NCBI RefSeq assembly: GCF_056746865.1
Contig: NZ_CM163382.1
Strand: one strand, 5' to 3'
DNA length: 64,000 bases
Made by a program: the position numbers and the translations under genes. The first letter of the stretch is position 1. Each line of letters opens with the position of its first letter. Of this stretch, positions 21,941 through 22,511 are shown piece by piece. Below the pieces are notes generated by a model. That model saw only the letters and a program-made list of their open reading frames with translations. It did no database searches and was not told the DNA's origin.

Positions 21941-22420
21941 TTAATCATCATCTAAATTATAATCATGGTAAATAGCCAGTTGCTTGTTGATTGGTAATTT
22001 ATTGATTTTTAAGGCCAACTCGATAGAGGATGCCGATAACATCTTTCTTTCTTCATCTGAAGTTCGTTCAACACCTTCAACTTGGTAGAGCAAAGCATTT
22101 AGCATCTTTTTTATAAATATACCTCGCTGTTCATCAGACAAATGTTCAGCCAAAGTCATTAGTAGACCTAATTCCCTTTTTACTCGTTCGCTATCTTGAG
22201 ATTGACCTGTTTCCTCACCTAGTAACCAAGCCGGACTAACTCCAGTAGCATGAGCGATCTTCTGAAGTTGCTCAATTCCATTCGGAAGCGAATCTCCGGC
22301 AACATATCCACGGATCGTAGAGTACGGGATATCACATTTTTGTGCCAGATCACGCATGGAATCGCCTGTCATAGCGAGAAGTTTCTCTAATCTGGCACTA
22401 AATTCACTCTTAATCATCAT
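21941..22420 (-). CDS. XRE-family helix-turn-helix transcriptional regulator (Cro/CI-type)
   Basis: 159 aa; N-terminal HTH LRDLAQKCDIPYSTIRGYVAGDSLPNGIEQLQKIAHATGVSPAWLLGE; convergent with the helicase operon. Confidence 0.75.
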   Translation of the reverse strand: MMIKSEFSARLEKLLAMTGDSMRDLAQKCDIPYSTIRGYVAGDSLPNGIEQLQKIAHATGVSPAWLLGEETGQSQDSERVKRELGLLMTLAEHLSDEQRGIFIKKMLNALLYQVEGVERTSDEERKMLSASSIELALKINKLPINKQLAIYHDYNLDDD

Positions 22421-22466
22421 ACTCCGATTTTGTAACCATATGAATGATAAGAAAAACAGATGAACT

Positions 22467-22511
22467 ATCGAAAATTAGATATTTATCACTTTAATTTGTC
22501 TAATTTTCGAT
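22467..22511. promoter_or_regulatory. 13-bp perfect inverted repeat upstream of the XRE regulator gene (candidate operator)
   Basis: atcgaaaattaga (22467..22479) and tctaattttcgat (22499..22511), spacer 19 bp, 45-90 bp upstream of the regulator start codon. Confidence 0.45.

Follow-up and report, generated by a model that had tools for sequence, protein, structure and literature searches.

What does a perfect inverted repeat bind that lies between an XRE-family regulator gene and a divergent sugar-uptake operon, and which of the neighbouring genes would be controlled through it? The question arises in a 64,000-nucleotide stretch of DNA (hereafter the window), a segment of an E. coli chromosome carrying smpB, the tmRNA gene ssrA (7961-8323) and an island integrated beside ssrA. 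Besides int and alpA, this island has iteron-like repeats and a DUF927 primase-like gene (14083-16152). Next come an AT-rich stretch, with about 25-33% G+C, and after it a glucitol-family PTS module at 59-67% G+C that opens with an srlA-like gene at 22781. The original prediction took the repeat to be the operator of an autoregulated repressor and named a defence operon, the sugar module and induction of the island as alternative further targets. On sequence comparison, we consider it reasonably probable that the adjacent XRE-family protein has its cognate operator in the 45-bp dyad at 22467-22511, and that through this dyad expression of the sugar module is probably set as well.

The regulator gene (21941-22420, minus strand) was identified from its ORF and by Pfam. 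It encodes a protein of 159 aa, RefSeq WP_000972910.1, which is labelled there 'helix-turn-helix domain-containing protein'. A second ATG at 22417, giving a product of 158 aa, is the start used by orthologues, and direct reading places a GGAG Shine-Dalgarno sequence (22422-22425, minus strand) before the start codons. The proposed assignment to the XRE family was confirmed by Pfam: HTH_3 matched residues 19-66 with 30.9 bits against a cut-off of 23, passing the gathering score, and Phage_CI_repr scored 23.9 bits against a cut-off of 22. The predicted parts are a five-helix HTH (6-66) with the lambda-repressor-like DNA-binding fold, a helical hairpin (73-114) and a C-terminal two-helix unit (130-153) that is missing from short family members. 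In an AF2 model with a mean pLDDT of 78 the C-terminal part is all-helical, and the model suggests that it has the layout of an oligomerisation domain. Pfam returned no match to Peptidase_S24; on this ground and on that of the all-helical C-terminal part in the model, a LexA or lambda CI-type self-cleaving repressor was rejected. No ligand-sensing domain is recognisable in the protein, and neither a protease partner nor an antirepressor is linked to it in its neighbourhood. The gene is monocistronic in the window.

The family to which this protein belongs is small: a search of 5.8 billion proteins gave 13 clusters, and 1.8 billion representatives yielded about a dozen full-length relatives. 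In the plasmid collection, matches were limited to the Cedecea copy, three distant relatives and a single E. coli record that is filed as a plasmid but has the size of a chromosome. Of 5,426 complete E. coli genomes, 131 carry regulator and dyad together, in each case at this locus and with at least 99% identity; the cassette is clonal in E. coli, with at least 99% identity in all matching genomes but one. In a profile search the HTH was nearest to those of TP901-1 CI (E 1.7e-8) and ICEBs1 ImmR (E 1.2e-6), both repressors of mobile elements. This likeness to phage and ICE repressors, together with the presence of int, alpA and the primase-like DUF927 gene on the same island, would suit an immunity or maintenance repressor of the ssrA island that controls excision or replication. 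Such a role is very improbable. No copy of the operator lies near int, alpA or the DUF927 gene, and the phage collection contained no close relative of the regulator among its 50,697 records. The family also occurs in unrelated elements (TraI_2 or TraC ICE regions and the Cedecea plasmid), always with a sugar gene. The lack of a protease partner, S24 domain or linked antirepressor likewise argues against control of island induction. Membership of the ImmR-ImmA (ICEBs1-type) class was rejected because the ImmA protease gene is absent, although the HTH of ImmR is similar.

The inverted repeat and its variants

The repeat consists of a regulator-proximal arm, ATCGAAAATTAGA on the plus strand (22467-22479), and a sugar-side arm, TCTAATTTTCGAT (22499-22511), each located by direct reading, a repeat search and alignments. 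As originally proposed, the two are complementary at 13 of 13 positions; between them lies an AT-rich spacer of 19 nt (22480-22498, from alignments of eight loci), and the whole dyad is 45 bp long. The proximal arm is 46 nt upstream of the regulator ATG at 22420. By first-order Markov simulation, 64 kb of sequence should contain 0.03 perfect 13-mer inverted repeats with a spacer of up to 40 nt, and about 2% of the simulated windows contained any perfect 13-mer inverted repeat. With up to one mismatch allowed, no further copy of the 13-mer was found in the 64-kb window, and looser 13-mer matches were at chance level (30 found versus 26.4 expected). The suggestion that further half-sites might lie near the promoter region at 16400-16824 was not upheld, as the 9-mer core with up to one mismatch is absent from 16150-16900; it is also absent from 22512-22790. 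Each arm is itself a partial palindrome, TCnAAnnTTnGA: when an arm is compared with its reverse complement, 8 of 12 positions agree in the window, and 10 of 12 agree in the T/A variant described below. The arm centres are 32 bp, or about three helical turns, apart.

A consensus scan placed a putative regulator promoter at 22444-22471 on the minus strand, with a TCGATA -35 (22471-22466) and a TATCAT -10 (22449-22444) separated by 16 nt. The same position was returned by a PWM scan in the window, in Cedecea (L007) and in L009. The putative -35 overlaps the regulator-proximal arm, in agreement with the proposal that the operator is situated in the upstream region of the regulator. A hexamer resembling a -10 begins 13 nt past the sugar-side arm on the plus strand, and its positional conservation in alignments suggests that it is the -10 of a promoter toward the srlA-like operon (TACACA, 22524-22529). 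It reads TATAAA in four orthologues, TACAAA in E04 and TATAAT in L014; the TACACA of the window is weak, and no plus-strand promoter in the window passed the 9-of-12 consensus scan. Because the hexamer is at the left edge of the conserved leader, the position of the matching -35 would fall inside the sugar-side arm. Promoter positions were inferred from weak consensus matches, and back-to-back promoters at these positions would share one operator.

The conserved leader is a non-coding block of about 90 nt (22519-22610, plus strand) that is present in every context, whichever sugar gene follows. On the minus strand the core of the block reads GCGTGGCAATT..GCCCTG..TATGCGATGCTCAG. The left edge of the block (22519-22521) is also the point from which L002 and L021 are homologous to the window at high identity. 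An Rfam scan of 21700-22900 gave sub-threshold chance matches only, and RNAalifold analysis of both strands of the block gave a covariation term of about zero. Sigma-54 and CRP sites in the block were rejected by eye for unsuitable spacing. A 69-aa ORF at 22512-22721 was rejected as a small protein gene, as the conserved nucleotides are in different frames in E. coli and K. aerogenes. Further toward the sugar genes, a hairpin, CTCCGGG-N7-CCCGGAG (22752-22772), overlaps the Shine-Dalgarno sequence of the srlA-like gene; K. aerogenes has at the equivalent place a GC hairpin followed by T6, which is attenuator-like (L017, around 7690-7720).

We recovered the DNA around 13 distinct contexts of the family. 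Eight of these, spanning E. coli, Klebsiella, Cedecea, K. aerogenes and metagenomes, have regulators that are 53-100% identical to the window protein; the range is 53-67% in the seven distinct loci other than the window. The same dyad was present in all eight. Mean pairwise identity among them was 96% for the sugar-side arm, where 12 of the 13 positions are invariant, and 90% for the regulator-proximal arm; for the spacer it was 64%, and for the 20-nt flanks 57% and 40%. The spacer is 19 nt long at every one of the eight loci while its sequence varies, except for a conserved AAAT beside the proximal arm. Position 4 of the arm is mirrored in the other arm at all eight loci, as G/C in three and T/A in five. 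This mirrored G/T change may descend from one event.

Conserved symmetry might also reflect an RNA or single-stranded DNA hairpin acting as a terminator, a processing site or a recombination site for cassette exchange. The plus strand folds with -16.2 kcal/mol (z -5.2), pairing is kept through the change from G/C to T/A, and the dyad is 8 nt from a recurrent homology breakpoint. However, the fold energy is no more than a consequence of the repeat, G-C pairs make up only 3 of the 13 in the stem, and the arms are conserved in sequence and not in pairing alone. The loop of 19 nt has an invariant length that a hairpin would not need. As for recombination, the breakpoints lie outside the repeat and no recombinase travels with it. 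A terminator, the alternative named earlier, is unlikely in view of the AT-rich stem, the invariant loop and the lack of a plus-strand U-run after the stem. Moreover, the 69-aa ORF ending at 22512 is in different frames in different species and is therefore not a conserved gene that would need one. Taken as a whole, we regard a hairpin function as highly unlikely.

Somewhat less improbable, but still quite unlikely, is that the palindrome is kept mainly as promoter DNA, that is, as two overlapping face-to-face promoters in which the 19-nt spacing is the -35/-10 spacing. TAGAnA, 17 nt and TCTAAT can be read in either direction, the PWM scan returns TAGACA/TAGAAA-17-TCTAAT in both orientations at several loci, and the strict spacer length suits promoter geometry. 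In contrast, TCTAAT is without the critical A at the second -10 position. Dyads of the E04, L021 and L024 types do not resemble promoters, although their location is the same and they change with the recognition helix of the regulator. The promoter-DNA and operator readings are not mutually exclusive, and both can hold.

The relationship between dyad and recognition helix became apparent with the more distant regulators. Those with a different recognition helix (30-40% identity) have other dyads at the same place. At the E. coli E04 locus the flanks are 88-92% identical to those of the window, yet the regulator there, WP_088144765.1, is only 34% identical. The dyad of the E04 type, as found in L002, is AAGAAAGTTAA-N15-TTAACTTTCTT, and a K. 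aerogenes relative of the E04-type regulator (L014) has AACAAAGTTAA-N15-TTAACTTTGTT, a second mirrored double change. Regulators with the helix LSEAAIRGY (P0018 and P0020, 36-40% identity) go with TCGAAA-based dyads of other geometry, which were found in L021 and L023. The helix IPDSTLRGY (P0028, in L024), from a regulator that is 30% identical, resembles the IPYSTIRGY of the window; the CGAAAATTAG core is retained in L024, in a dyad whose arms are everted (CGCCAATTTTCGCG-N18-CGCGAAAATTAGCG). A pairing of dyad with helix would be predicted for a cognate protein-DNA pair, and is not predicted by a terminator or a generic structural element. Because the dyad is conserved, symmetric and swapped with helix type, we read it as a cognate operator overlapping the regulator's own promoter. 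These comparisons lend support to the autoregulatory operator that was first proposed, and very probably the dyad is the predicted binding site of the regulator itself.

The sugar neighbour and the variable cargo slot

A divergent sugar-gene neighbour was found in 13 of 13 contexts: a gut-family PTS operon in eight, an adh_short gene in four and a PTS remnant in one. The remnant (L011) is the 5′ end of an srlA-like gene beside the regulator, and another catabolic operon now adjoins it. The shared leader lies between dyad and sugar gene in every context examined, down to a regulator identity of 30-36%, and no further regulator gene accompanies the PTS module. The downstream neighbour of the regulator varies among the 13 contexts. 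Since sugar gene, leader, dyad and regulator are constant while the cargo varies, they form the minimal conserved unit, and the constancy of the divergent neighbour makes the sugar module the likely second target. Among the three targets of the original prediction, the sugar module is the favoured one, ahead of the defence operon and island induction.

The case against the defence operon comes from the organisation of the cargo. The AT-rich cargo of the window (16478-21940, plus strand; Pfam, PADLOC and blastn) comprises an MBL-fold nuclease-like gene, a 407-aa gene of no known family and a split HamB-like helicase. The Hachiman-like operon within it (16825-21786) is convergent with the regulator, and a hairpin lies between the helicase and regulator genes (21813-21850; 14-bp perfect stem, 17 nt at 94%, from the repeat search) that looks like a bidirectional terminator. 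On one side of the cargo is a conserved backbone at 13559-16477 (blastn against E04 and Klebsiella). Homology resumes on the PTS side at 22519-22521 (blastn against E04, Klebsiella and L021), and the Klebsiella match extends to 22119, inside the regulator. Judging from these alignments, all that lies between the backbone and the PTS-side junction is a variable slot. Elsewhere the slot contains a 90-aa gene (E04), a PD-(D/E)xK DUF6602 protein (Klebsiella), PDC-M43A/B (K. aerogenes) or, in another K. aerogenes strain, an integrase and Lamassu-like genes. In L024 (2516-3660), where the PTS operon is accompanied by a single regulator of 30% identity and by the ori/DUF927/AlpA backbone, the slot is without a cargo gene. 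Control of the defence operon is disfavoured because the operon is convergent and without a second site, its genes are cargo in a variable slot, and in L024 the regulator occurs without cargo.

The same slot can be viewed differently, with the regulator at the head of the cargo and controlling the defence genes downstream in the manner of CapH, BrxR or an R-M controller, and with the sugar genes as a mere neighbour. Of the two sides of the recombination junction at 22519-22521, it is the variable one that carries regulator and dyad. Cargo is co-directional just downstream of the regulator in six contexts (Klebsiella, Cedecea, L009, L013, L014 and L017), where it could be the regulator's real target, read through from its promoter; there is no obvious terminator after the regulator in L003 or L007. 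The cargo includes PDC-M43A/B, the PD-(D/E)xK DUF6602 protein and Lamassu-like genes, the regulator has a weak PADLOC match to capH (2.6e-5), and its relatives have diverse specificities, as in immunity regions. The opposite arrangement is nevertheless seen in the window, where the cargo operon converges on the regulator with a hairpin in between and contains no copy of the operator, and the downstream gene is also convergent with the regulator in L011, L021, L023 and E04. In addition, L024 has the regulator without any cargo, and the sugar neighbour is kept down to 30-36% regulator identity, whereas the cargo is not. We consider control of the cargo from its head unlikely, and the sugar-uptake genes a more likely target of the predicted switch than the phage-defence genes. 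The adjacent defence genes are thus probably outside the control of the regulator, which is relevant to studies of island expression.

Some features of the locus count against a sugar-module model. Regulator and dyad have diverged much further than the PTS genes have (63% protein identity versus about 86-92% DNA identity), which is unusual for a dedicated metabolic regulator, and the protein shows no recognisable domain through which a sugar signal would reach it. It is conceivable, though doubtful, that regulator and dyad form a swappable specificity cassette at the junction 22519-22521, coupling the defence cargo, and perhaps the sugar genes, to a signal sensed by the C-terminal part. Under that proposal, at least four or five mutually orthogonal regulator/operator types would be placed between one conserved sugar-gene leader and a slot in which phage-defence systems accumulate, and the proteins would be a family of defence-island regulators not described so far. 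On one metagenome contig there are two dehydrogenase-regulator modules whose leaders are near-identical but whose regulators and dyads differ, an arrangement that looks like selection for orthogonal specificities. Such specificities are less typical of sugar regulators than of R-M controller proteins or immunity regions. In L014 (7571-8384) two family regulators are in tandem with an 11-nt overlap; an E04-type regulator with its own dyad comes first, the second is short and of the window type (P0012) and its dyad is lost, and PDC-M43A/B follows the pair in the same direction.

Proposed mechanism and comparison with known regulators

The favoured reading, that of a cognate operator shared by regulator and sugar module, suggests a simple mechanism. 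Because each arm is a partial palindrome, each 13-bp arm would probably bind one HTH dimer, and the everted arms of L024 suggest that each arm is a self-contained site. The distance of 32 bp between arm centres would place both arms on the same face of the DNA. Two dimers would then be joined through the helical C-terminal part of the regulator; given the arm structure and the analogy with TP901-1 CI and CapH, two dimers bridged by the C-terminal domain is the most economical model. Occupancy of the proximal arm would cover the -35 of the regulator promoter and lead to negative autoregulation. The sugar-side arm would occupy the -35 position of the divergent srlA-like PTS promoter, and the same complex would set expression of the sugar module. 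As expected of an autoregulated repressor, the promoter region of the regulator gene contains a symmetric site, and this site is conserved and changes together with the regulator. Conserved repeat, symmetric change, fixed spacing, pairing with regulator type and sugar-gene synteny are directly supported; what we infer is that the protein binds, in which oligomeric state it does so, where the promoters lie, which sign the regulation has and what signal induces.

Among solved structures, the best matches to the HTH were those of CI from the Lactococcus phage TP901-1 (6tri, 3zhm and 3zhi, E 1.7e-8 to 6.6e-8). TP901-1 CI consists of an NTD, a helical domain for dimerisation (CTD1) and a CTD2 through which higher oligomers form (PMC4941734). 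Our model of the regulator has a similar order of parts, with HTH, linker, a two-helix dimerisation unit and a further helical unit. Like the phage repressor, it is without an S24 protease domain and sits at a divergent promoter pair, which is putative here. However, the C-terminal parts are without sequence similarity, the divergent gene is srlA-like and not a MOR-like antirepressor, and the 64-kb window has one operator region versus three sites in the phage. In addition, the element here is not a phage, and close homologues are absent from phage records. We rejected a TP901-1 CI-type switch, since there is no MOR gene and a single operator region in 64 kb.

In layout, the locus also resembles the TetR/tetA type, with regulator and target back to back and a symmetric operator overlapping both putative promoters. 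As in that type, regulator and target are conserved as a two-gene unit, in the adh_short contexts. The differences are the XRE fold, the lack of a recognisable ligand-binding domain and the absence of a known inducer.

R-M controller (C) proteins are about 75-80 aa long, have no C-terminal domain and are co-transcribed with the restriction endonuclease gene. Compared with C.AhdI, C.BclI and C.Esp1396I and their C-boxes, the protein described here is longer (159 aa), its candidate element spans 45 bp, of which a gap of 19 nt separates the arms, and its neighbours include no R-M genes. Its C-terminal extension, monocistronic gene and lack of R-M genes led us to reject membership of this class.

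CapH dimerises and tetramerises via a short helical C-terminal domain and binds a conserved site by its promoter (bioRxiv 10.1101/2022.04.27.489752). The regulator shares with it an HTH and a short helical C-terminal domain, the latter from the model, and defence genes adjoin. Sequence similarity is weak: the PADLOC capH match covers residues 2-109, and the CapH NTD (7t5u) was found by profile search with an E value of only 0.054. Unlike CapH, the regulator is convergent with the defence operon of the window and not upstream of it. No peptidase, the M78-type metallopeptidase CapP included, is encoded in the slot, and the neighbours are a HamB-like helicase fragment and srlA, and CapH-CapP membership was rejected because this defining partner is missing.

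With these results the anonymous WP_000972910.1 becomes a testable regulator with a defined 45-bp candidate target and half-site. The proposed regulator-operator pair is a fresh instance of a familiar class of switch, and it leaves the understanding of that class unchanged. Its most useful feature is the series of specificity variants: related regulators with different dyads in the same position constitute a natural series for the change of DNA specificity in XRE proteins.

Further features of the island

The HamB-like helicase (19262-21786) is split into ORFs of 400 and 427 aa in different frames at an A7 run (20448-20454). Addition of one A to this run gives a single 828-aa frame that covers the whole HamB model of PADLOC. 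The matching E. coli genomes are 100% identical across the helicase region among the matches listed, and the split is probably common to the 131 carriers, the state of the homopolymer itself being judged from identity of the region. It could represent either a frameshift pseudogene or a slippage-prone site. Upstream, the 407-aa ORF and a 71-aa ORF (17804-19269) are joined into one 488-aa frame when one T is added to a T7 run (19011-19017); the joined protein had no match in PADLOC or Pfam. Assignment of the 407-aa gene as HamA (DUF1837) was unsupported, even when joined to the 71-aa ORF. The sole HamA match was to the 71-aa ORF (E 0.0028), and it was gone when the fused frame was scanned.

On the far side of the sugar genes, right after the PTS module, an AT-rich gene annotated as DUF3883 (25917-27170, plus strand) gave a full-length match to PD-T4-1 (PADLOC, E 1.7e-204). 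Thus, defence inserts flank the sugar module on both sides.

Just after the DUF927 gene, GGTGGTACAG and GGTGGGACA motifs are repeated (16178-16384; also L002 7730-7940 and L024 3420-3640), and an 11-bp inverted repeat (16322-16332 and 16373-16383) is present as well. These elements, which are conserved between islands, look like replication-origin iterons. About 100 nt upstream of alpA there is a perfect 14-bp inverted repeat, AAAATCATTAGTCC-N22-GGACTAATGATTTT (13683-13696 and 13719-13732), which is a candidate for another regulatory site. A perfect 12-bp inverted repeat, TTTAGCACCACG-N20-CGTGGTGCTAAA (8444-8455 and 8476-8487), is located between the 3′ end of ssrA and the start of the integrase gene.
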